A stretch of 62,540 nucleotides of DNA, counting the filler, from assembly GCA_964501035.1 (NCBI GenBank). It is 11 parts of 11 records of this genome, joined end to end, with 100 filler letters (N's around TTAATTAATTAA, not from the genome) between each part and the next. Parts side by side here need not be neighbours in the genome. Positions count along the whole stretch, not along the records: positions 30,504 to 36,050 come from CAZCRK010000080.1; 10 more parts are not named here. One strand, 5' to 3'. Made by a program: the position numbers and the translations under genes. Below, piece after piece: positions 6,221 to 62,131 of the stretch. Within the stretch, counting starts at the first letter, position 1, and every line of letters starts with the position of its first letter. Under the pieces are notes generated by a model. The model was not told the DNA's origin, searched no databases, and saw only the letters and a list, made by a program, of their open reading frames with translations.

Positions 6221-6320
6221 NNNNNNNNNNNNNNNNNNNNNNNNNNNNNNNNNNNNNNNNNNNNTTAATTAATTAANNNNNNNNNNNNNNNNNNNNNNNN
6301 NNNNNNNNNNNNNNNNNNNN
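6221..6320. other. Artificial scaffold linker (N-TTAATTAATTAA-N); same linker at 12431, 18537, 24621, 30404, 36051, 41617, 46993, 52280, 57439
   Basis: Identical 100-nt spacer with stops in all six frames. Intervening scaffolds are 6110, 6006, 5984, 5683, 5547, 5466, 5276, 5187 and 5059 bp (descending). Confidence 0.98.
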
Positions 6321-8544: not shown

Positions 8545-9778
8545 TTTCTACTTCATTTTTAGATTTAAAAATATGTAATAACTCAAATTGAAAGAACTGT
8601 TGTTCTCGTGAAATTGTGTAATACAAATATAGCCCTATTATTCCTAAAATTACATTGGGTAGCCACATTGAGGTTACCGGTGAGAGAAGCCCACGATCTG
8701 CAAATTCTTCACCCCCTATTAAAAATGCCCAATAAATAATGAAAAATCCCAAACTAAATGCCATGCTCANNNNNNNNNNNNNNNNNNNNNNNNNNNNNNN
8801 NNNNNNNNNNNNNNNNNNNNNNNNNNNNNNNNNNNNNNNNNNNNNNNNNNNNNNNNNNNNNNNNNNNNNCTCATAATGATCTAATTGAGTATTAATAATA
8901 TCTTCAGATTTACGGTGTAAAATATTCAATTCTGCTTCACTGTTTAAGCGATTATCAATCCGTTCCCGCACATTTTCTATTTTATCTTCAAAGGATGCAA
9001 TCTTTTTTCGTATCATTTCATAGGTCATTTCCCTATCACCTCGAATTTTACTATCACGCCGTTGCATTACCAAATTATCTACAGGAATGACCACATCATA
9101 ATTGTCAAAGTAAATTTGCCTGTATTCATCATTTTGTCCTGCAAGCTCATGAATGACCCCTTTTTGCAAATGAAGTATAACTCCATCATCGATGGTTTCA
9201 ATGGTTCCTGTTTCTGCAGTTATGGTATTTTTTGAAGATGTTTTGTCGGTGTTGAAAATGATAATATCTAAGAAAGTATCATTGTTTCGTCCACCTAGTA
9301 AAATGGTATGGTTGGGAAGTGCATCAATAAAATATCCAGAGTCAAATTCTAAATCGGGTCTTTTTCGACTAAAATCAGCAGATAATAATCGTGCTTTATG
9401 ATTCATTTCGGGGAGATACCAATTGTTAAATACTGTCATTAACATCGTGATTACAATACCAAAAACGATAGCTGGAAAAATTAATTTTCCATAACCAACC
9501 CCTGATGCACGCATTGCACCAATTTCGTTATCTGCTGAAAGTCGTCCATATGCCATCATGGTGGCAACTAATACTGCCATGGGCACTGCAAGGGCTAAAA
9601 TCCAGGCAAGGTTTAAGAAAATGTATTCAATTAAAAGTGAAAATTCTAATCCTTTGCCTAAAAATTTATCAATACTTCTCAATAAAAAATTTGCAAGTAG
9701 TACAAATAATAAGACAAACAACGCCATGATAAAAGGGGGCAAATGTTCTTTTAAAATATATCTACTTATCAATTTCAT
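8537..9778 (-). CDS. LptF/LptG family LPS export permease (internal N gap)
   Basis: LAVPMAVLVATMMAYGRLSADNEIGAMRASG motif; C-terminal WLPN TM segment. Confidence 0.9.
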   Translation of the reverse strand: MKLISRYILKEHLPPFIMALFVLLFVLLANFLLRSIDKFLGKGLEFSLLIEYIFLNLAWILALAVPMAVLVATMMAYGRLSADNEIGAMRASGVGYGKLIFPAIVFGIVITMLMTVFNNWYLPEMNHKARLLSADFSRKRPDLEFDSGYFIDALPNHTILLGGRNNDTFLDIIIFNTDKTSSKNTITAETGTIETIDDGVILHLQKGVIHELAGQNDEYRQIYFDNYDVVIPVDNLVMQRRDSKIRGDREMTYEMIRKKIASFEDKIENVRERIDNRLNSEAELNILHRKSEDIINTQLDHYEXXXXXXXXXXXXXXXXXXXXXXXXXXXXXXXXXXSMAFSLGFFIIYWAFLIGGEEFADRGLLSPVTSMWLPNVILGIIGLYLYYTISREQQFFQFELLHIFKSKNEVEND

Positions 9779-12430: not shown

Positions 12431-12532
12431 NNNNNNNNNNNNNNNNNNNNNNNNNNNNNNNNNNNNNNNNNNNNTTAATTAATTAANNNNNNNNNNNNNN
12501 NNNNNNNNNNNNNNNNNNNNNNNNNNNNNNCT

Positions 12533-18536: not shown

Positions 18537-18974
18537 NNNNNNNNNNNNNNNNNNNNNNNNNNNNNNNNNNNNNNNNNNNNTTAATTAATTAANNNNNNNN
18601 NNNNNNNNNNNNNNNNNNNNNNNNNNNNNNNNNNNNGGAATTGCGGGACCGAATTGCTGAACTGCGGCAAAAGACAGAAGGCAAAGGATAAGTCTATAAA
18701 ATTTATTCCTAGGTCTCAGTATTGATCACTGATAAATCGTTGGTGTTTGTAGAAAATCCCTAGGCTAGGTTGTGGAGGGTGTCTGACTGTGAAGAAGAAG
18801 TGGAAATTATTCACAGGAGAAGATAGGTTGGTTTTTTAGTTTTCCAAAGTTTCTTTTATATAGGAATCTACTTCTTTATATGAAAGTTTGTTAATAGAAT
18901 TAACTATCAATTTAAGCCAATAATTTCGAGTTAAAATAATAAAGAATTTTTGATTAAATCAGGAAAAAATTATA

Positions 18975-24620: not shown

Positions 24621-24720
24621 NNNNNNNNNNNNNNNNNNNNNNNNNNNNNNNNNNNNNNNNNNNNTTAATTAATTAANNNNNNNNNNNNNNNNNNNNNNNN
24701 NNNNNNNNNNNNNNNNNNNN

Positions 24721-30403: not shown

Positions 30404-30657
30404 NNNNNNNNNNNNNNNNNNNNNNNNNNNNNNNNNNNNNNNNNNNNTTAATTAATTAANNNNNNNNNNNNNNNNNNNNNNNNNNNNNNNNNNNNNNNNN
30501 NNNCATACACAGCCAATGCGGAGGAATAAACACAATAGGGTTTACACGAACGTTGGGCTTCATGCAAGTGAACCAATATCGAAAATTGTTAAAAACCTGA
30601 TTGAAACTTTTAATGGCTAAAGTTACACAATAGAAAAATATGGATTATTTTTGTAGT

Positions 30658-31935
30658 ATGAGTAAAAAATATACAGTGGCAAGTTTATTTTCTGGTTGCG
30701 GAGGTCTTGACTTAGGTTTCATTCAAGCAGGATTTGAGGTTGTTTGGGCTAATGACTTTTTTAAAGAAGCTGTTGAAACTTATAAAACAAATATTGGTAA
30801 CCATATCATTTATGGTGATATAACAAAAATACCTAGTTCAGAAATACCTGATAACTTTGATATTTTACTTGGTGGTTTTCCTTGTCAAGGGTTTTCTGTT
30901 GCGAATACTAAAAGAAGTATGGAAGATGAAAGAAACTTCTTGTATTTGGAAATGATAAGATTGATTAGAGACAAACGTCCTAAATTTTTTGTTGCAGAAA
31001 ACGTTAAAGGACTTTTGTCTATGCAGAAAGGTCAGGTAATGGACATGATACTGAATGATTTTAGAGAACTTGGTTATAATGTAGAATATCGCCTTTTAAA
31101 AGCATCAGAATATGGGGTGCCACAACACAGAGAAAGAGTTGTTATTATTGGAAATAGACTTGGAGTAAACAATCCTTTCCCAAAAAAAACACATGGAGAG
31201 GAATACAATTTATTTGATAATAATCTTAAACCTTTTGTATCTGTAAAAGATGTCGTTAATCATCTGACAGATGTTAGAACTCGTTTTTGTTCTTTTGACA
31301 TAGATGGTGTAACTATTCATAATCATAATGCAAGAACAAATGTTGCTGATAAATTTTGGGGGAGAAAATACAAAGTTAATCAACATGACGTTTGTGATTA
31401 TTTGAAATATTGGAGAAATAAGAGTGGATGGACTACTAAAAAAGTTGATGAGCATTTTGGATACGCACATACGGCTGGACATTGGTTTAGAAAAGATAAT
31501 AATTCAGGAAGTATTCCTAATCCCAAAGACTGGTGGGAACTAAAGAAAATTCTCGGGTTTGACGATAAATTTGATAAACTTGTTACAGAAATGGAACTGA
31601 AAGAAATCAAATTTGAACAATCATTAAGAATAAATAATTGGGAAAAACCTAGTGACACAATTACTGCAACAGGACCTGAAATTCACCCTAATAAAGAGCG
31701 AAGAATGTCTGTTAGAGAGTGTGCTATTATTCAAACATTTCCTGATGACTTTGTATTTAAAGGTAGTATAGGAAATATGTATAAGCAAATTGGAAATGCT
31801 GTTCCAGTCTTATTAGCAAACAGAATTGCAGTAGAAATAAAAAATGAGCTGGAAGTATTTAAAACGAAATCTCAAAAAGAAATTAATTTAAATGGAACGA
31901 AAAGATATAGAGAAATTAGAACAAAAGTATCTTAA
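30658..31935 (+). CDS. DNA (cytosine-5) methyltransferase of type II R-M system
   Basis: SLFSGCGG (I), GGFPCQGFS (IV), ENV (VI), QHRERV (VIII), RRMSVRECA (IX), YKQIGNAV (X). Confidence 0.96.
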   Translation: MSKKYTVASLFSGCGGLDLGFIQAGFEVVWANDFFKEAVETYKTNIGNHIIYGDITKIPSSEIPDNFDILLGGFPCQGFSVANTKRSMEDERNFLYLEMIRLIRDKRPKFFVAENVKGLLSMQKGQVMDMILNDFRELGYNVEYRLLKASEYGVPQHRERVVIIGNRLGVNNPFPKKTHGEEYNLFDNNLKPFVSVKDVVNHLTDVRTRFCSFDIDGVTIHNHNARTNVADKFWGRKYKVNQHDVCDYLKYWRNKSGWTTKKVDEHFGYAHTAGHWFRKDNNSGSIPNPKDWWELKKILGFDDKFDKLVTEMELKEIKFEQSLRINNWEKPSDTITATGPEIHPNKERRMSVRECAIIQTFPDDFVFKGSIGNMYKQIGNAVPVLLANRIAVEIKNELEVFKTKSQKEINLNGTKRYREIRTKVS

Positions 31936-32692
31936 CAAATACTATTATTTCTTAAAATTTGCAGAGGATGAACTCCTTCTTGGATTTAAATCTAAATATA
32001 AGATTAAAAATGACTGGTACCATAAATGGGATCCCAATGAAGAAGGTAAAGGAATATCTGACTTTGCAACTGGTGCTGAAAGAATCGTTTATTCACTTCT
32101 AAATGGGAAAGGTATTGGGCAACCAAATTCAGCACCCATAGGATCTGATTTGTTTTTTGAAGTAGATGACGCTTTTATCCACATTGATTTGAAAACAGTA
32201 CAAACTAGAAACATTGGAGATTATACGGGTGATATTTTTGTTGGGAATAACCAAAATAGCTACAATGGAAAACTGTTAGTTAGTAATAGAGAAAAAATAT
32301 ATGAAGAAGCTGCTCTGCCCCATTTTTACACCTTAGATGATGGTTCCCAAAAAATTTGCTTAACATATTTTATAACTATTCTATATGAAGAACAAAACTT
32401 AGAGATTTTAAATATCAATATTCTAAGTATGCCTAACGNNNNNNNNNNCGGAGCTTTATTCCCAATTTATGATAAAGATGTTTTAAAAGCAGGGAAAGTC
32501 TTATTTCCTGTGGGTAATCCTAAAAGAGACACCCACGCAAAATCTATTCGTTATAATTGGAAAAACAATTTAGATTACAAATTACTTGATAATAATACAA
32601 AAAGAATTAAGGTTGCTTATTTTAATGAAAATATGCCTGCTGAATTTAAAGAAAAACTAGGTTTAATTTCCGATTTGTATAAAGAACAATAA
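31892..32692 (+). CDS. Putative type II restriction endonuclease (PD-(D/E)xK; BglI/SfiI-like by inspection)
   Basis: Overlaps the MTase 3' end; GAE..GSDLFF..IHIDLKT..NQNSY catalytic-type motifs. Confidence 0.75.
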   Translation: MERKDIEKLEQKYLNKYYYFLKFAEDELLLGFKSKYKIKNDWYHKWDPNEEGKGISDFATGAERIVYSLLNGKGIGQPNSAPIGSDLFFEVDDAFIHIDLKTVQTRNIGDYTGDIFVGNNQNSYNGKLLVSNREKIYEEAALPHFYTLDDGSQKICLTYFITILYEEQNLEILNINILSMPNXXXXGALFPIYDKDVLKAGKVLFPVGNPKRDTHAKSIRYNWKNNLDYKLLDNNTKRIKVAYFNENMPAEFKEKLGLISDLYKEQ

Positions 32693-32701
32693 AGCACGAA
32701 A

Positions 32702-32833
32702 GCCCAACATTTTGTATAAGTAATGGCAGGTGATATACTAAATATCAAGGTTTGTAGCTCGTTCAAACAACTTAGCGGTTTGACGGGAAATTACCACGAA
32801 ATCTGCCACTACTCATACAATTTTCCGTTATTC
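32702..32833 (+). other. attC-like recombination site (~130 bp)
   Basis: GCCCAAC, arm TTGTATAAGTAATGGCAG (32712-32729) pairing with CTGCCACTACTCATACAA (32803-32820, 16/18), inner TCAAAC/GTTTGA stem, terminal GTT. Confidence 0.7.
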
Positions 32834-34030
32834 CCCTATCAACTCTCCATTTTTCATGACATTTAGGATTCGAGCTGAGTTAAGCCAATACGGTATCTCT
32901 TCAAGACAGTTAATTTCCCAAAATATCAAATCTGCTTTATATCCTTCTTGTATGAGTCCAGTATTAGATTCCAATTTTAGAGATTTGGCAGAATTATATG
33001 TTGATGCAATAAATGCTTCATCTACTGAAAGTCCGCAATATTGAGTTGCCAAAAACATAACCATTGGTATTGATTGTAGGGTACAAGAACCCGGATTAAA
33101 GTCAGTAGCAAGAGCTATATCACAACCAGCATCAATCATCTTTTTACCATTAGCATAAGTATCTTTACCCAAAAAGAATGTTGTTCCAGGCAATAAAGTA
33201 GCTATTACATTTTCCTGAGCTAAAGATTTTATTCCAATATCACTTACTGCCATTAAATGATCTGCAGAAACAGCACCAATTTCACCCGCAAGTTCTGCTG
33301 CTCCTGAATCGATAAATTCATCTGCATGAAGACGTGGTAGTAAGCCAAAAGATATTGCTGTTTCTAATATTCTTCGAGATTGTTTCACAGTAAAATATCC
33401 AATTTCACAAAACACATCACAAAAGACCGCCAATTTTTCTTCAGCAACTTGCGGAATCATTTCATTGCAAATTAAATCAATATAACCATTCGTATTATTT
33501 TTAAATTCGGGTGGAAAATCGTGCGCACCTAAAAATGTTGGAATGATATCTAATGAAGATGCTTCATTCATGCGTTTAATTACTCTTAGAGACTTTAACT
33601 CATCTTCAACGGTTAAACCATATCCAGATTTTGCTTCAATTGTAGTTGTTCCATGTCCCAAAAAGAAATTTACTCTTTCGATGGATTCATCAAAAAGTTG
33701 ATCTTCAGTAGCATTTCTCACTCCATTTATGGATGAAACAATTCCACCACCAGCATCTGCAATTTCTTCGTATGTTTTACCAGAAACTCGCATTTTAAAC
33801 TCACTTGCTCGGTTTCCATAAAAAACTGGATGTGTATGTGAATCTACAAAACCAGGAGTGAGTAATGCACCATCAGAATTGATTTCAATTTCAGCATCGT
33901 TTACACTTGGAGAAATCTCAATTATATGACCATCATCAATTAGAATTTCAGCATCAGAAATCGATTGCACTTCTTTAGTTTGAGGTGAATAAGTTACAAT
34001 TGAACCAATATTAGTAATTTTAGTTTTCAT
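32828..34030 (-). CDS. hutI: Imidazolonepropionase
   Basis: [30 protein letters not shown]. Confidence 0.97.
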
Positions 34031-35685
34031 TTTTTCATTGGAATATTAAGAATTCTATCTTTAGCAACATTAATTGCTCTTTCATATCCTGCATCAGCAT
34101 GACGTGCTACTCCCATACCAGGGTCATTGGTTAACACACGATTTAATCGCTCTTTCATCTCTTGAGTTCCATCAGCTACAATAACAACACCTGAGTGAAT
34201 TGCAAGTCCCATTCCTACACCACCGCCATGATGAAGGGATGTCCAACTTGTTCCGCCTGTTGTACTCAACAGTGCATTTAAAATAGGCCAGTCAGCAACT
34301 GCATCAGAACCATCTTTCATTGCTTCAGTTTCACGATTAGGTGACGCTACTGACCCTGCATCAAGATGATCACGTCCAATAACTATTGGAGCTTTCAACT
34401 CTCCGGAGGCAACCATATCGTTAATTGCTTCGCCAAACAGATTTCGTTCTCTGTATCCCAACCAACAAATACGAGATGGTAATCCTTGAAATTGTACTTT
34501 TTCTTGTGCCATGTTAATCCATCTATGAAGTGCTTTATCTTCAGGAAACAACTCAAGTACTTTTGCATCGGTTTTATAAATATCTTCTGGGTCTCCAGAT
34601 AATGCTACCCACCTAAATGGACCTTTGCCATCGCAAAATAAGGGGCGAATATATGCTGGAACAAACCCGGGAAAATCAAACGCATTTTCTATTCCTCCAT
34701 GTTCTTTAGCTTGGCCACGTAAATTATTTCCATAATCAAAAACGACGGATCCCATCTTTTGCAAATCCAACATTGCCTGACAATGTACAGCCATTGATTT
34801 ATATGACATTTCAATATATTTATCTGGATTTGATACACGTAATTGTGTTGCTTCTTCAAATGAAATTCCATGAGGTATATACCCAACAAGCTCATCATGA
34901 GCTGATGTTTGATCTGTTACAATATCTGGTACAATTCCACGTTTTACAAATTCAGGGAGAACATCCGCGGTATTACCTAACAAACCAATTGATAATGCTT
35001 CACCTTTTGCTTTTGCATCAAAAGCTAACTTTATTGCTTCATCGATGTCATTGGTGGATCTATCTAAGTAACGTGTTTCTAAGCGTCTTTTAATGCTGTG
35101 AGGGTCAATTTCGACAGTTATATTCACACCTTCATTCATTGTAACAGCCAAAGGTTGTGCGCCACCCATTCCACCCAATCCACCTGTTAAAGTGAGTGTA
35201 CCTTTTAAGGAACCATTAAAATTTTGCTGAGCAACTTCAGCCAACGTTTCATACGTGCCTTGAAGAATTCCTTGAGTGCCAATATAAATCCATGAACCTG
35301 CTGTCATTTGACCGTACATCATCAACCCTTTTTTATCTAATTCCCGGAAATGATTCCAGTTTGCCCAATTTGGCACTAACATTGAATTAGAGATGAGTAC
35401 ACGAGGAGAATGTTCATGGGTTTTGAATACTGCGACTGGTTTCCCTGATTGGATTAAAAGCGTTTCATCATTTTCTAATGTTTTTAATGTTTCTAAAATT
35501 GAATCAAAACAATCCCAATTTCGAGCTGCTTTTCCTAGCCCACCATACACAATGAGTTCATTTGGGTTTTCTGCCACATCAGGATCTAAATTATTTTGAA
35601 TCATTCTATAGGCAGCTTCTTGATGCCATCCTTTACAATGTAATGTGCTCCCAGTTGGAGCTTTCACGATTCGTGAATTAGCCAT
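34027..35685 (-). CDS. hutU: Urocanate hydratase
   Basis: [39 protein letters not shown]. Confidence 0.99.
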
Positions 35686-35763
35686 GTTGGTTCCTCAATT
35701 AATAATAAATAGAAAAAATGTAATCTCTGATAATTTACAGGGTTTTAGACTTTTGGGACTATA

Positions 35764-36050
35764 TTAATATTCGAAAGGATAACCCAGTGCATCATTCACG
35801 GGTTGAAACCAATCTAAGTTATATTTATGTGAATCATATGAAAAAATACTCACTCCTCTAAATCCATTAAGGCGAGTTAATAATACTTTATCTGCTGAAG
35901 ATTGAGCATCTTGATTATATGTTGCAATTCCCATAATGATTTTATCTTTATCTTCAGGTGATAAATTGTTTTTCATTAAATCAATACATGTATTGAAATA
36001 ATTAATATCTTTGAAATAATTCATAGGCACTGCAAAATCAAGTAACCCTG
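35764..36050 (-). CDS. C-terminal fragment of a TIM-barrel glycoside hydrolase-like protein (GHL10/DUF187-like)
   Basis: GLLDFAVPMNY..GIATYN..GVSIFSYD; truncated by linker. Confidence 0.55.
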
Positions 36051-36150
36051 NNNNNNNNNNNNNNNNNNNNNNNNNNNNNNNNNNNNNNNNNNNNTTAATT
36101 AATTAANNNNNNNNNNNNNNNNNNNNNNNNNNNNNNNNNNNNNNNNNNNN

Positions 36151-38204: not shown

Positions 38205-41200
38205 TTATTTTAATAACATTATCTTTTGAATCTGCATTGAACTCGCAGATTGTAATCGAACAAAATAAATTCCACTTGGTTGCAGTTTTGCATCCCACAT
38301 CATTTCATAGTAGCCAGCGTCCACTAATCCATCTACCAGAGTTTCTACAAGTTGACCCTGTACATTGTAAATTTGAAGTGATACACGACTTTGTGTTTCA
38401 GTTGAATAATGTATTGTCGTTACTGGGTTAAATGGATTTGGATACACAGAATTTAAATTAACATCATATGGTAAGGTGTTGGCTTCATCTGTCAAACTAT
38501 TAACAAACAATACTGTGTTATTTTCCCAAGAAGGTACATTACCTACTAAATCAATGAGTTCACCTGTAGTTTCTTTAATAAGTTTGAAAGATGGAGTTTC
38601 TCCTTCTGTACAATACCCTACTGAATAAAATTGATTATCTGAACCCATTGAAGGAACATCAGTATTATTTCCATTCCACTCTCTTATACCTACAATTACA
38701 TCACCATTATATGCTACAATCCAATCCCCCTCTTCAGCAATATCAATTGATTCAATCATGTAAAACGCACATTTTGAGGATTGTGCAACTTCAAATCCAG
38801 AAGGAACTGTTTTTTCCACCTTAGAACGTGAAAAACTGGGTGCATTATAACTAAATGAAATATCTTCATTTGATTTAAACCAATATCCATTTCCTGGAAT
38901 AAAATGTGTTAAGCTACCAACCCAGTCACCATCTATCAGAATAGAAACTTCATTTTGTGACATCACACTATATATTGTTCCAACTACATCAGATGGAAGT
39001 GCATCTTGAATAGCAGAAGAAACATTGAATGGATATGAAAGTAAATTAGCTCCATATTGCAATTCATACTCTCCAGGATCAGTTGGATTTCCTTCAATAG
39101 TTAAAACATCACTTTCATTGAGTAATAACCAATAACCCGACCATTGATCTACAGATGTTAAACTACCAATCCACAGCCCATCATCAGTATATTGAGTTGC
39201 ATTACTTTCTCCAATAACACTGAATACATTTCCAGCAATTGGTTCTAAAATGTTAACAATTGTAGGCTCTTCAGGTAAAACATTGAAGCTTACCAAATTG
39301 GCTGCCATATCTAATGCTAATTCTTGAGTAAATGTGTAATCACAGCAATCATCACATGATATTATTGCTTCAGGGTCAAAGTTAACTGCTTCGGGATCTG
39401 TACAACCAGTACATGTGGAATTATCACCTTCACAAATCCCACAGTCGTCAAGTTCTGCAGAGCCACCCCAGTCTCCATTACAATCTTGAATACAGTCGTT
39501 ATCAGGGTCATCATCACAAACTCCACAGTTATCAGTGTATCCAGAACCAAAACAAACTCCACATTCATCCATGTCTGAATTATTTCCATCACATACACCG
39601 CAATCATCTATTTCGGCATCACCAAAACAAACTCCTGCACAATCCATGTCAGCATTTCCACCTTCACAGACTCCANNNNNNNNNNNNNNNNNNNNNNNNN
39701 NNNNNNNNNNNNNNNNNNNNNNNNNNNNNNNNNNNNNNNNNNNNNNNNNNNNNNNNNNNNNNNNNNNNNNNNNNNTGTCAGCATTTCCACCTTCACAGAC
39801 TCCACAGTCGTCAAGTTCTGCAGAGCCACCAAGTTCGCCAAAACAATCTGGATAAACATTGAGTGTTTCAGCTACATATTGAGTGTTTTCTGACCACGGA
39901 TACTCTTCTGAGGCAATTGCATTGTAAAACTCATTTTCTGAAGCATCATAAACTATAAATGTAGGAATATCGCCGTCGTTCATATATCCTTCTGAATACA
40001 ATTCACCATCATCACCCATTACTGGAACTTCGCACACATTTCCTTCACATTGTGAGGTATCCCATTTTCGTGAACCTACACATATATCACCATTAAATGC
40101 ACCAACCCAATCATCGCCTGAAAGTGGTGTTCCATCAATACTGGCAATATTAAAAAAGTAAAATGCTTGTTGGGTAGATTGAGTATATTGAAACAACTCT
40201 GGTGGTGAATCTTCTTCATATATGCAAGATCCATCATCAATAGTGGCTTCATTATCAAAGTTAATTGCAGTTGGGTCAGTACAACCAAAGCAGTCATTTT
40301 CACCAAAGCAAACACCGCATTCATCTATATCTGCATTGTTGCCATCACATACCCCACATTCATCTAGTTCAGACGAACCTCCGCATTCACCATTACAATC
40401 AATTTCTACGATACAGTTTCCATCACAATCATAATTTTCTTCAGGGTATTCACAACAATTATCACATTCTGCAGTTGCATCAGCATCGTAATTACATGCA
40501 GAATCATCAACACAACCCTCAGCTCCACCCCATGAATCATCTTCAATAAAAAATTCAAATGGAGTAAAGGCATTTCCAACTGTCATATCTGAAACAAAAT
40601 CCAATGTTTCATTTAAGCAATACACTTGATCTGTATTTGCATGGTAATATTTGAAAGTAATGGTTTCTCCAGATGGTTCATTACTAAAAAGCATTAAGTT
40701 AAATACATAATAATTAGTTGGTGGAAACAATAATCCATTTTGTACACCTCTTAATTCATCACCAACGAATCCAGCAAGCAAATCCTCTGAACCACCCACC
40801 ATATTGTCGTTTATATACACAGCTGCAGTCACTGAGCCATTATTTTCAAAATCGGGTGGATTTATCACCCATGTACTTGGATCAGATTCACATTCTGAAG
40901 GTTCACAAGATGAACCATCACCTCCACAAACACCGCATTCATCATCAGTATTTCCATAACAATCACAATCGCCTTCGGGAATATCTTCACATCCACATTC
41001 ATATACAGCACCTGGACCCTCACAAATACCACATTCATCCACTATAGCAGATCCACCACATTCACCACTACAATCTATTTCAACAATGCAATTACCATCA
41101 CAATCATAATTGAATTCTGCGAATTCACATGTTCCATCATCTATTGTTGCCGTATCATCGTAGTTACATGCGTCTAAGTCTGTACATCCGAACACTTCAT

Positions 41201-49023: not shown

Positions 49024-49598
49024 GTGAAATATTTAAGAAAAGAACATTNNNNNNNNNNNNNNNNNNNNNNNNNNNNNNNNNNNNNNNNNNNNNNNNNNNN
49101 NNNNNNNNNNNNNNNNNNNNNNNNNNNNNNNNNNNNNNNNNNNNNNNNGACCCTGTATTTTTGTGTTTTTGTGCAATTTGTCATTTTAAACAATTAAAAA
49201 TTGGATACGATCGTCAATATTACGTAGGTGAAATATCTGATGAGCATGCTCGAATTTATGAAATTGCTGTTGAAGCACAACAAGCATCTATAAAAGAAAT
49301 GAAGCCTGGAGTTACTGCTGAACAAGTTAATGCTGCTTCGGATGAAGTATACAAAAGTCATGATATGGGTTTTTGTTATCGTACAGGGCGGGCTGTTGGA
49401 TATTCATCACTTGAAAAACCAGAATTAAAGAAAGGTGATAAAACAATCTTATCCGCTGGTATGGTTTTTGCAGTAGATGGCGGAGTAACTATTCCAGATA
49501 AATTTGGAGCTCGAATAGGAGATACAATTTTAGTAACTGAAAATGGATCAGAATGTATTACTGAATATCCAAGGAATGAACCAGTAATTAAAGGATAA
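49020..49598 (+). CDS. M24 family peptidase/hydrolase (large internal gap)
   Basis: ATGA overlap with soxG; YRTGRAVG, GMVFAVDGG, GARIGDTILVTENG.E.IT.YPR. Confidence 0.8.
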   Translation: MSEIFKKRTXXXXXXXXXXXXXXXXXXXXXXXXXXXXXXXXXXDPVFLCFCAICHFKQLKIGYDRQYYVGEISDEHARIYEIAVEAQQASIKEMKPGVTAEQVNAASDEVYKSHDMGFCYRTGRAVGYSSLEKPELKKGDKTILSAGMVFAVDGGVTIPDKFGARIGDTILVTENGSECITEYPRNEPVIKG

Positions 49599-60053: not shown

Positions 60054-62131
60054 TTGACTGCACTCCAATTAGTTCGCACCATTTTCATCGGTGTCATCAC
60101 AATAATTGTAATATATTTGATGAATACAAAACTTGACAGTATTCCACCACTCGGGAAATTTTTAGACCCATTTCATGGTTATTTAGCATTAGTGGGAAGC
60201 GACACACTCCCAACCAAATTTCCAATGTTTGATGAGTTACAATCGCCAGTTGATGTTGTCTGGGATGAATATAGAATTCCACATATTTTTGCAGAAAATG
60301 ATAACGATTTATATTTTGTACAGGGATATGTCATGGCAATGGATAGATTATGGCAGATGGAATTTCAAACCCATGCTGCAGGTGGAAGAATGTCAGAAAT
60401 TGTGGGCGAAAAGGCCATAAAGTTTGATAAGTTTCAACGACGAATTGGAATGCGTAGCTCTGCACAAGCTCAACTTGATTTAGCGATGCAAGATTCTGAA
60501 ATCACTATGATGACAACATCTTTCTCAAATGGTGTAAATGCATATATTGAATCTTTAGACGCTGATAATTATCCCATTGAATATAAAATTTTAGATTATG
60601 CACCCGAAGTATGGACACCCCTTAAAACATGTTTGCTTTTGAAGAGTATGGCNNNNNNNNNNNNNNNNNNNNNNNNNNNNNNNNNNNNNNNNNNNNNNNN
60701 NNNNNNNNNNNNNNNNNNNNNNNNNNNNNNNNNNNNNNNNNNNNNNNNNNNNATGAGAGTAAATCAGAATATTTGTTTGATGGAGAATGGATTCAAACTA
60801 CATCTATGATTGAAGAAATTAAAGTACGTGATGAGGAAACTATTTACGATACGGTAATATATACCCATCATGGTCCAGTAGTTTGGGAAGAAATAGATCA
60901 AACATTGGCTATGGGAAAATATAGTTTAAAAAATAATGTTTGTCAAACATCCATTGGTCGAGCATTGCGTTGGTTAGCCCATACACCTGCAAATGAAATG
61001 CGTACATTTTACGAGTTAAATAGAGCAAAAGATTATAATGATTTTACTAAAGCCCTTCGTCACTTTACATGCCCAGGGCAAAATTTTGTGTATGCGGATA
61101 TTAAAGGCAATATTGCGATTTGGCACACAGGTAATAATCCTGCAAAATGGGAAAAACAGGGTATGTTTATTAGTGATGGGACCAATTCAAAATACGATTG
61201 GCAAGCCACTATTCCACATGAGCAAAAACCCCATATTAAAAACCCAGACAGAGGGTTTGTGAGTTCTGCAAATCAACATCCTACGGATGAAAACTATCCT
61301 TACTTTTTAGCAGAATTCTTTTGGCCATCATTTAGAGGACATCGCATCAATGAACGGTTGAGTGAGATGCAAAGTGGAAATATATTTGAAGTCCTTTCAG
61401 TTCAGATGGATAATACAAACATTATGGCAAGGCGAGTAACTCCACATCTTATTGAATCTCTTTCAAATTTTGAGTTAAATGATGCTGAAACAAATGTGTT
61501 AAAACATATAACAACTTGGGATTACAGCTTTGATCATAGCTCTATTGGTGCAACTATTTTCCAGCAATGGTTTGATGCTTTAGAAGTATTGGTTTGGAAA
61601 GATAATTTTGGCCTAGATGATGAACAATATATTTGGCCATATTCCAATAAACTTGCTGAACTTATTCAGTTTGAACCAAATTCTAAATGGTTTGATATTG
61701 ATACAACCGATGCAATTGAATCCTTTAGTGATTTGTCTCAATTAGCATTTACTCAAGCAGTGCAAGAATTAACAAACAAGTTTGGGGAGATTGATGATTC
61801 ATGGCAATGGCAGTATGCTCGAGGAACTGATATTCGCCATCTTGCTAAAATTCCTGGTTTTGGAGACATTGGAGTTCCTACTGCAGGGGGTTCATTGGTA
61901 CCTAATGCTACAGGAAAATACTTTGGTCCATCATGGCGATATGCTGTTGAAATGACCGAAACCCCCAAAGCATACGGAATTTATCCAGGGGGACAATCGG
62001 GATACCCAGGAAGTAAGTATTATGATAATATGGTTGATGATTGGAGTATCGGAAAATCGTACCCACTCATTTTTAGTAATTCTGCATCTGATATTCAAGG
62101 TCATATAAGTCGATTTGGAGGAAATAAGTGA
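60054..62131 (+). CDS. Penicillin acylase family Ntn-hydrolase (S45), spanning an N gap
   Basis: IPHIFA, QGYVMAMDRLWQM; THHGPV, QNFVYAD, SANQ, GPSWR, YPGGQSG. The catalytic Ser region falls in the gap. Confidence 0.92.

Follow-up and report, generated by a model that had tools for sequence, protein, structure and literature searches.

A restriction-modification gene pair as a probable integron-type cassette behind a decayed Xer-like recombinase gene in a Neomarinimicrobiota genome

Can a complete restriction-modification (R-M) system travel as a single gene cassette of the integron type, and must the recombinase that captures such a cassette be an integron integrase? According to the prevailing view of integrons, an IntI-specific domain of the integrase together with extrahelical bases of the attC site enables single-stranded cassette recombination, and surveys define integrons by the presence of that domain. 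The question is raised by a locus in genome assembly GCA_964501035.1 (termed here G000; 1.87 Mb in 167 contigs, 34% G+C), in which a DNA methyltransferase (MTase) gene and a putative restriction endonuclease (REase) gene lie between two mutually inverse boxes and are followed by a hairpin that abuts the end of the convergent gene hutI. The locus is carried by contig C80 (CAZCRK010000080.1; 5547 bp), which corresponds to positions 30504-36050 of the 62,540-nucleotide stretch of DNA that was analysed (termed the window), to which coordinates without a prefix refer. The host is placed within the Neomarinimicrobiota (FCB group) because the nearest named relatives of its hutI belong to metagenome-assembled genomes (MAGs) of Candidatus Neomarinimicrobiota (Marinimicrobia).

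The interpretation favored here is that the MTase-REase pair is probably one integron-type mobile cassette, the first and only one at the attI-like site of a small platform located between mraZ and hutI. The initial annotation of the window had proposed such a cassette from this sequence alone; comparison with other genomes, metagenomes and natural populations supports that proposal through G/TT cores (the slash denotes the crossover point), covarying end boxes, a family of related sites, homologous cassettes and variable junctions.

The anatomy of the locus is given in Table 1; each of the sequence features that the initial annotation had described was found again at its position, including the final G of the site at 32827, which is directly followed by TTA, the stop codon of hutI. 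The 8-bp core of the two end boxes (AGCCCAAC and GTTGGGCT) is exact, and complementarity runs on from it with one mismatch and one indel. These cores conform to those of integrons: GCCCAAC at 32702-32708 is of the RYYYAAC type, and GTTGGGC at 30552-30558 is of the GTTRRRY type. It is this GTTGGGC that becomes the R' box in the circular form; the R' box as it now stands reads GTTATTC and is a hybrid with the end of hutI. The cassette would span from the TT at 30553 to the G at 32827, its 3' end being a 131-nt attC-like site. Within a circular single strand, the first box of this site (..AAGCCCAAC) would pair with the cassette's own 5' end (GTTGGGCTT..), beside an 18-bp stem, and the circle junction, from cassette end to cassette start, would read ..TTTTCCG/TTGGGCTT... 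A tyrosine recombinase would then recombine the folded bottom strand with a double-stranded docking site at G/TT, resulting in precise insertion or excision, as in integrons.

Table 1. Coordinates of the features of the R-M locus and its flanks on contig C80 (window positions).
Feature	Position	Strand	Remarks
attI-like docking site, 3' part	30504-30551	+	extends to the left on contig C6, where it follows the stop codon of the recombinase remnant
Putative cassette 5' boundary, R' box GTTGGGCTTCATGC	30552-30565	+	crossover G/TT between 30552 and 30553; complementary to own R'' box
TAnnTTTG-type motif TATTTTTG	30646-30653	+	4 nt before the MTase ATG at 30658
C5 cytosine DNA methyltransferase, type II	30658-31935	+	alternative ORF start at 30640
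Putative type II restriction endonuclease	31892-32692	+	overlaps the end of the MTase gene; stop TAA at 32690-32692
R'' box GCACGAAAGCCCAAC	32694-32708	+	core GCCCAAC at 32702-32708; start of the attC-like site
attC-like site, ~131-nt family	32699-32829	+	R'' box, 3-4 nt spacer, L'' arm, conserved loop, L' arm, TTTTCC spacer, G/TT (between 32827 and 32828)
L'' arm TTGTATAAGTAATGGCAG	32712-32729	+	18 nt
L' arm CTGCCACTACTCATACAA	32803-32820	+	18 nt
TTTTCC-G	32821-32827	+	follows the L' arm; final G abuts the hutI stop
hutI (imidazolonepropionase)	32828-34030	-	convergent; stop codon TTA at 32828-32830; TIGR01224 427.3 bits (cut-off 298)
hutU (urocanase)	34027-35685	-	Urocanase_N, Urocanase and Urocanase_C Pfam domains; housekeeping neighbour outside the element

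In the top strand, the two arms of the hairpin pair by Watson-Crick rules at 16 of 18 positions, both mismatches being A.C; on the bottom strand both become G.T, and hence the 18 pairs are continuous. Folded as a linear element, the hairpin has z-scores of -1.5 (top strand) and -2.6 (bottom strand). When the ends of the cassette are joined as a circle, a fold that the initial annotation had proposed as a check, the two end boxes pair on the bottom strand, which reaches -25.5 kcal/mol (as compared with -22.2 for the top strand) at z = -4.7, with 0 of 200 shuffles as low. Likewise, the bottom strand is the more stable of the two in six of the eight sites that were folded. The palindromes of attC sites range in size from about 57 to 141 nt; the G000 site, with 131 nt, an R box, an unpaired spacer, an L stem and a favored bottom strand, has the form of such an imperfect palindrome. 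Canonical attC sites need bulged (that is, extrahelical) bases, however, and the 17-18-bp stem in the consensus of this family is continuous, containing two G.T pairs and no bulge. The lack of an extrahelical base in the arms, to which the initial annotation had drawn attention in G000, therefore characterizes the site family as a whole, and it is in line with the absence of the IntI insertion from the neighbouring recombinase, as described below. A scan of 30504-33000 against Rfam, at E-values up to 10, returned chance-level matches only.

Related hairpins are found in diverse contexts, contrary to the outcome by which the initial annotation would have had the element be nothing but a terminator. 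A blastn search against 60 loci that encode relatives of the REase yielded a sole match (85% identity over 124 nt), at L102:1676-1798. L102 is a Neomarinimicrobiota MAG locus (genome G058), in which the copy lies upstream of a homologous R-M pair and not at a convergent gene end. An nhmmer profile built from these two hairpins identified a third copy at L188:5476-5604 (E = 1.5e-13) in an Ignavibacteria MAG, and at least 120 metagenome contigs contain the exact 22-mer of the site's 5' arm. Of these, 80 contigs were fetched, which are the ones covered by the metagenome site analyses described here; the 3' arm is kept in 53 of them, nearly always at the same offset. Among 43 collected sites, 34 are exactly 131 nt long; the stem and loop are conserved, variation is limited to the 7-10 nt before ..AAC and to the bases after GTT, and the G000 site is typical. 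Searching for the hairpin, as the initial annotation had advised, gave copies in other genomes and metagenomes; within the G000 assembly, the hairpin and the boxes were found on C80 only, the nhmmer matches beyond it being weak (C7, E = 0.0098; C1, E = 0.47).

The end boxes covary as cassette logic would require. Within 46 of the 65 evaluable metagenome contigs (i.e., those with at least 800 nt upstream of the site), the 10-mer before the site has a reverse complement that starts with GTT (at most one mismatch) no more than 4 kb upstream, whereas permuting the boxes among loci gives 2.9. Because such covariation is expected only if the two ends pair, the site would appear to function, in the circular form of the cassette, as a folded single strand. 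For G000 the end pair is GTTGGGCTT with AAGCCCAAC; that is, the 5' end of the cassette is the reverse complement of its own R'' box. For homologous R-M cassettes the end pairs are GTTAGGC with GCCTAAC in L102 (5' end GTTAGGCTTTATGC), GTTGCCAGC with GCTGGCAAC in L093 (5' end GTTGCCAGCAATGC), GTTGCAAGA with TCTTGCAAC in L053 (5' end GTTGCAAGAAATGC), and GTTGCCAGC with GCTGGCAAG in L099 (5' end GTTGCCAGCAATGC). These four are the loci with convincing cassette ends among the 46 R-M loci evaluated (out of 60 in total), of which 10 have some GTT 9-mer together with its complement, where 4.7 are expected. In both L093 and L053 the R-M cassette is also the first one behind a recombinase or attI hairpin.

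Where several cassettes follow one another, the boxes can be read from unit to unit. In the L102 array the first unit starts with GTTATGGGCAAGTTA and ends with TAACCTGCCCATAAC, the hairpin and G, and the R-M unit starts with GTTAGGCTTTATGC and ends with GCAAAAAGGCCTAAC and a degenerate copy of the site. Locus L188 reads GTTGTGTGTC ... AACACACAAC-site-G/TTAGCGGGC ... GCCCGCTAAC-site-G/TTAACACC, with matching boxes, and L128 (a locus in a complete, 6.1-Mb Draconibacterium-like chromosome) and L200 can likewise be walked cassette by cassette with matching boxes. In L299, a metagenome contig, a recombinase gene and an attI hairpin are followed by G/TTATGGGCA, a cassette, AGCCCATAAC, the 131-nt site and G/TTAGCACC, in that order. 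L102 also contains, at L102:1794-2057, a mini-cassette without an open reading frame (ORF), which begins with GTTGATGTGCC, has its own inverse box (GGCACATCAAC) about 60 nt further on, and continues into a palindromic site of another type (~190 nt; arms at 1869-1884 and 2044-2059). A crude whole-genome scan for cassette logic, which scored top-strand pairs and missed C80, produced 45 low-quality matches and was discarded.

Upstream of the cassette, contig C6 ends in the same 55 bp with which C80 begins; as there are 70 such 55-bp end matches in the assembly (counted from both sides), the two contigs are taken to be adjacent in the assembly graph at k = 55. C6 carries mraZ on the opposite strand and then, on the cassette strand, an 89-codon ORF that ends 118 bp before GTTGGGC. 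The 89-residue product aligns to residues 1-23 (65%) and 211-278 (84%) of the 278-residue recombinase of locus L116 and, because only these two ends align, about 187 codons have been deleted from the middle of the gene. The sequence from the recombinase stop codon to GTT is conserved in L117, L123, L150 and L188, where it ends in ..ATACAC(G/A)(A/C)AC directly before GTT, the loci diverging from that point on. A copy of this post-recombinase sequence makes up the first 48 bp of C80: positions 30504-30551 are, by eye, ~73% identical to the corresponding L117 sequence (..ATATACACGAAC/GTT). (A 22-mer of the docking site has 0 matches in the metagenome contig collection.) The initial annotation had read 30504-30551 as the right arm of a preceding attC site, from which it deduced that more cassettes lie upstream. 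Neither point survives, since this stretch instead matches the attI-like site found behind recombinase genes, so that the locus has a single cassette, the R-M unit, which is also the first. At its other end, the cassette may have recombined into a secondary chromosomal GTT at the hutI stop codon, as the initial annotation proposed, or the platform as a whole may simply adjoin hutI.

On this basis, the Xer/XerA-like gene upstream on the same strand would have been the recombinase of the platform, which in G000 is dead due to the ~187-codon deletion. Therefore the cassette is probably frozen in place, unless an enzyme acts on it in trans, such as the canonical IntI whose N-terminal part is on contig C31 (see below). 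Recombinase remnants were also observed in L117, L123, L150 and L188 (59, 77, 96 and 139 codons, respectively), all of them with the 3' end and the docking site still present, which suggests that recombinase genes frequently decay while the site and the cassettes persist.

Intact relatives of the remnant associate this kind of enzyme with cassette arrays. Relatives of the short recombinase score 241 bits against the XerA-type profile NF040815 (cut-off 220) and 212 bits against the IntI profile TIGR02249 (cut-off 265); the intact short recombinases as a group score 185-219 bits on the latter and thus fall under its cut-off. The distance between the KDR and HxLRH motifs is ~56 residues in the short recombinases versus 95 in the canonical IntI of G001 (a genome of the same genus as G000), which indicates that the former lack the IntI insertion. 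At least two consecutive cassettes occur downstream of the short recombinase in 7 of the 35 loci with at least 2.5 kb of downstream sequence, but in none of the controls (0 of 66 for upstream DNA and 0 of 35 for downstream DNA read backwards). Calls of single cassettes by the same walker are unreliable (24 of 35 real loci versus 12 of 66 and 13 of 35 in the respective controls) and were not used. In L128 an intact, 296-residue enzyme is associated with at least five cassettes. It is proposed, though tentatively and at somewhat less than even confidence, that a widespread family of short Xer/XerA-like recombinases without the IntI I2 insertion carries out integron-type recombination between a folded, single-stranded attC and a double-stranded attI at G/TT, using bulge-free sites in which the strand to be recombined is marked by G.T/A.C asymmetry and by an unequal spacer.

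The rival that survives best would have this be an ordinary cassette that was moved by canonical IntI (i.e., a lone attC site or a remnant of a cluster of attC sites lacking an integron integrase, or CALIN), the adjoining Xer-like remnant being unrelated to it. Canonical IntI is indeed present in this lineage: searching G000 with TIGR02249, a kind of search that the initial annotation had suggested, gave two partial matches at contig ends (C6 and C31), the second of which comprises the N-terminal 189 positions of an IntI (C31:4-570, minus strand; 237 bits). Full canonical IntI genes scoring 442-452 bits were found in four other genomes (G001:C2:41-982, G003:C22:36303-37244, G043:C52:5-916 and G058:C16:622-1563), the 3' ends facing the contig end both in G000 and in these relatives. 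In G003 and G058 the IntI stop codon is followed by a shared attI ending in ..TATATACATG/GTT and then by the first cassette, so that this lineage has 'inverted' true integrons in addition to the Xer-type platform. Moreover, this attI resembles the L'/core part of the 131-nt sites, whose cores fit RYYYAAC and GTTRRRY and whose length is within the attC range. Yet the docking site in G000 is of the type found behind short recombinases rather than an IntI-type attI; the same site family occurs behind short recombinases in L188 and L299; and, of the 80 metagenome loci with the 131-nt site, the three that have a recombinase gene include none that matches IntI better than the short type. Nor do any of the five genomes with such arrays, one of them a complete 6.1-Mb chromosome, have a match over the TIGR02249 cut-off (one has a 142-residue IntI fragment), and the site is devoid of the extrahelical bases that canonical attC sites need. 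This explanation is therefore considered unlikely, and an Xer-type platform is preferred.

A second rival, which fares less well, is that the whole block--recombinase, docking site, R-M pair and hairpin--is a small integrative island between mraZ and hutI, its repeats being attachment scars. The gene order in G001 is compatible with this: it lacks both the block and the adjacency of mraZ and hutI, with mraZ facing trxA/trxB and hutI facing a dockerin-like gene, and its homology to G000 ends ~130 bp before the recombinase remnant. The G000 orthologue of the dockerin-like gene is located on contig C10 beside other genes, which implies that the hut neighbourhood has been rearranged in G000. (By eye, many of the loci of 30 relatives, L003-L030, have a gene convergent to hutI whose C-terminus is repetitive, dockerin-like or calcium-binding-like.) The repeats, however, enclose only the R-M pair and not the recombinase; an R-M unit with matching boxes occurs in four other contexts, in one of which (L102) it is inside an array behind another cassette; and variant junctions in natural populations coincide with the cassette cores.

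These junctions were examined in four public seawater and brine runs (X1-X4), which contain 63-78% of the sampled words of the stretch from hairpin to hutI. Contigs from these runs were compared with 30504-34030, which establishes that other junctions exist though not how often they do. At the left core, contigs depart from the G000 sequence after 30554 (two contigs of X3) and after 30558 (X1 and X2), and a 3884-nt contig of X4 covers only 30504-30554. At the right core, they depart after 32829 (two contigs of X4) and after 32831 (X3), and one X4 contig switches from other DNA to the G000 sequence at 32700. Over 32746-32863, word depth reaches 62 (X3) and 143 (X4), as compared with ~6 on hutI. 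The branch after 30558 also explains why C6 ended exactly at GTTGGGC. None of the alternative junction sequences from X1-X4 occurs in the G000 assembly and, among the contigs listed for these runs, none spans the attC-hutI junction by 31 letters in each direction, a statement that pertains to contigs only. In X3 the alternative sequence after GTT (AGCACCAATT..) begins like the cassette behind the L299 site; a cassette starting with TTAGCACCAATT.. was observed both behind a G000-type docking site (brine, X3) and behind a 131-nt site in L299 (2619 onwards), an unrelated metagenome contig, which hints at a cassette pool that may be shared across environments. Overall, the island explanation is rated as quite improbable, although it could hold for the platform as a whole and leave the cassette interpretation unchanged.

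That the hairpin is a mere bidirectional terminator, flanked by an inverted repeat by chance, is exceedingly improbable and is refuted as far as sequence comparison can refute it. This idea draws on the weak statistics of the locus by itself (52 of 500 shuffles; z = -1.5 and -2.6), on the position of the hairpin between two genes that converge and on the absence of another copy from the genome. Against it, no T-run follows the stem, both the sequence and the length of the 131-nt element are maintained across many unrelated contexts, its box covaries with an upstream GTT box (46 of 65 versus 2.9), and in L102 the element lies upstream of the R-M pair instead of at a convergent gene end.

Several observations nevertheless weigh against interpreting the R-M pair as a cassette on a recombinase platform. 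The join between C6 and C80 is a 55-bp graph overlap at a branching node rather than continuous contig sequence. The recombinase is dead in G000, and nothing shows that this copy ever moved there. No second copy of the site was found in the 1.87-Mb assembly by exact search, blastn-short or nhmmer, no empty site was found among relatives (G001 was compared, in which the neighbours differ on both sides), and no contig of X1-X4 joins the docking site directly to hutI, which, as these are contigs only, is no proof of absence. A site without bulges is at odds with what canonical attC requires. Because both G000 and the genome containing L102 encode canonical IntI, the enzyme responsible might not be the short recombinase, and a quick tree of 30 recombinases, which groups canonical IntI in a clade apart, does not separate the array-linked enzymes from the conserved Xer of the lineage. 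The assignment of the REase is weak, given a PADLOC match of 1.5e-8 without a Pfam or PDB match. Finally, the inverted repeat flanking the R-M pair is, by itself and in G000 only, not significant: the best gapless complementary stretch between the flanks scores 9.5, which 52 of 500 shuffles equal. By itself, this locus is thus compatible with chance; it is the comparison with other DNA that shows the repeat to be real.

The cargo itself is a gene pair of which the first member is clearly, and the second weakly, assignable to type II R-M systems by homology. The MTase matches PF00145 (1.8e-87), TIGR00675 (274.6 bits) and the PADLOC model MTase_II (9.7e-106), and its closest relative of solved structure is M.HaeIII (2.4e-53). 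The REase matches the PADLOC model REase_II; it has no Pfam match and no PDB sequence match, and a PDB sequence search with its full-length L102 homologue found nothing below E = 0.1. Its look-alikes according to a language model are enzymes of the MwoI/BglI/SfiI type, which serves as a lead only. Relatives of the REase are encoded at 60 loci across many phyla, in 46 evaluable ones of which an MTase gene is linked to it upstream on the same strand. Compared with known type II systems consisting of an M.HaeIII-like C5 MTase and an MwoI/BglI/SfiI-like REase, the G000 MTase thus matches PF00145 and TIGR00675 over its full length; and, compared with related R-M pairs, the gene pair is conserved in 60 places, though mostly not as a cassette (convincing ends being confined to 4 of the 46 evaluable loci).

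Ten Ns at 32439-32448 fall inside the REase gene. One contig of run X3 crosses this gap with 12 letters omitted, the flanks overlapping by ~2 nt; hence the gap is a scaffolding artefact and the reading frame of the REase is kept. Upstream of the MTase gene, TATTTTTG, a motif of the TAnnTTTG type, may be the cassette's own promoter element, and the same GTATTTTTGTA..ATG context is present in the cassette copy in L102 (in the region of L102:2148-2163). A promoter element 4 nt from the ATG would entail a leaderless or nearly leaderless mRNA, so that the cassette may bring along its own promoter. In its present location the cassette would provide a type II R-M defence, probably expressed from that promoter.

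As to the surroundings, a search of 41 genomes (G000 plus 40 relatives) gave a match to hutI in 38. Rather than being a continuous piece of chromosome, the window consists of separate contigs chained by linkers of the form N44-TTAATTAATTAA-N44 (at 6221-6320, 12431-12530, 18537-18636, 24621-24720, 30404-30503, 36051-36150 and other positions), for which reason gene adjacency across linkers is meaningless. In particular, 30504 is the end of contig C80, so that the large ORF preceding it is part of a different contig. Runs of 100 Ns were also observed inside contigs, at 8770-8869, 39676-39775, 49049-49148 and 60653-60752.

How does this platform relate to known systems? It shares with integrons the G/TT cores, a cassette 5' end that is complementary to the box at the start of the same cassette's 3' site, an imperfectly palindromic site of attC length whose bottom strand gives the better fold, a docking site directly behind the recombinase gene and, in the form of the R-M cassette, a defence cargo. 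It differs in that the adjacent recombinase lacks the IntI insertion and falls below the TIGR02249 cut-off and in that the site lacks bulges, its asymmetry being due only to two G.T/A.C positions and the unequal spacer. Thus, where a complete integron has an adjacent integrase with the IntI insertion that scores over that cut-off, G000 has an 89-residue Xer/XerA-like remnant. In 'inverted' chromosomal integrons, intI and cassettes are co-oriented (Cury et al. 2016, PMC4889954; Ghaly et al. 2022, PMC9668308), and archaeal integrons have been described with putative attI sites immediately after the intI gene (Ghaly et al. 2022, PMC9668308). Recombinases without the domain were few near attC sites (50 of 18,808) and were judged not to be IntI (Cury et al. 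2016, PMC4889954), and R-M genes are reported to be over-represented in integrons, where small restriction systems (types II and IV) are prevalent (10.1101/2024.07.02.601686).

The closest published system is rAID-1 of gut Bacteroidales, in which a XerD-family recombinase heads co-oriented arrays with intergenic repeats reminiscent of integrons, in 226 of 423 genomes (Ross et al. 2019, 10.1101/471110). As described there, the two systems have in common that short accessory genes form co-oriented arrays headed, on the 5' side, by a XerD-family recombinase, that conserved motifs follow the stop codon of the recombinase and separate the genes, and that the cargo is defensive. Unlike rAID-1, however, the present host is a seawater member of the Neomarinimicrobiota rather than a gut Bacteroidales; the cargo is one two-gene R-M cassette rather than (orphan) immunity genes; and the recombinase is a deletion remnant. 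The criteria for rAID-1 clusters were a XerD-like recombinase on the 5' side, with an identity of at least 44% to BF9343_RS08045, and at least two co-oriented downstream genes of low G+C (10.1101/471110). Two co-oriented genes do follow the G000 remnant, but they form one cassette, and a genomic G+C of 34% makes the low-G+C criterion non-discriminating. In their available portions, the rAID papers give no crossover point, folded site or box covariation, and a 2025 follow-up, in which the words integron and attC are absent from the accessible text, describes the mechanism of rAID biogenesis as still open (PMC12247911). More generally, no attC-type mechanism, crossover point, folded site or box covariation for the Xer-like family was found among open-access papers and bioRxiv preprints, at the level of titles and the beginnings of abstracts; the supplements to Ross et al. 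may bear on this.

The G000 locus is thus interpreted as a frozen, single-cassette platform of an Xer-type integron-like class, for which both the host phylum and the cargo are new, and the 131-nt site as a widespread, sharply defined type of attC. To our knowledge, the marine and sediment hosts concerned lie outside the groups in which integrons or rAID-1 clusters are known. Taken alone, G000 is of modest significance: it contains one frozen defence cassette beside a dead recombinase gene. Yet the full footprint of a cassette here adjoins a recombinase family without the IntI domain, on bulge-free sites, and a complete R-M system appears to travel between phyla as a single cassette. The 131-nt site together with an intact recombinase, such as that of L128, constitutes a testable pair with which to ask whether cassette capture needs the IntI insertion. 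If short Xer-like recombinases do act in this way, then the insertion would not be needed for cassette capture, and these platforms would represent either an ancestral form of the integron or a second, independent invention of it; their distribution would take in the FCB group and extend past it, while searches based on IntI would fail to see them; and the R-M cassette described here would be one travelling defence module of such platforms.

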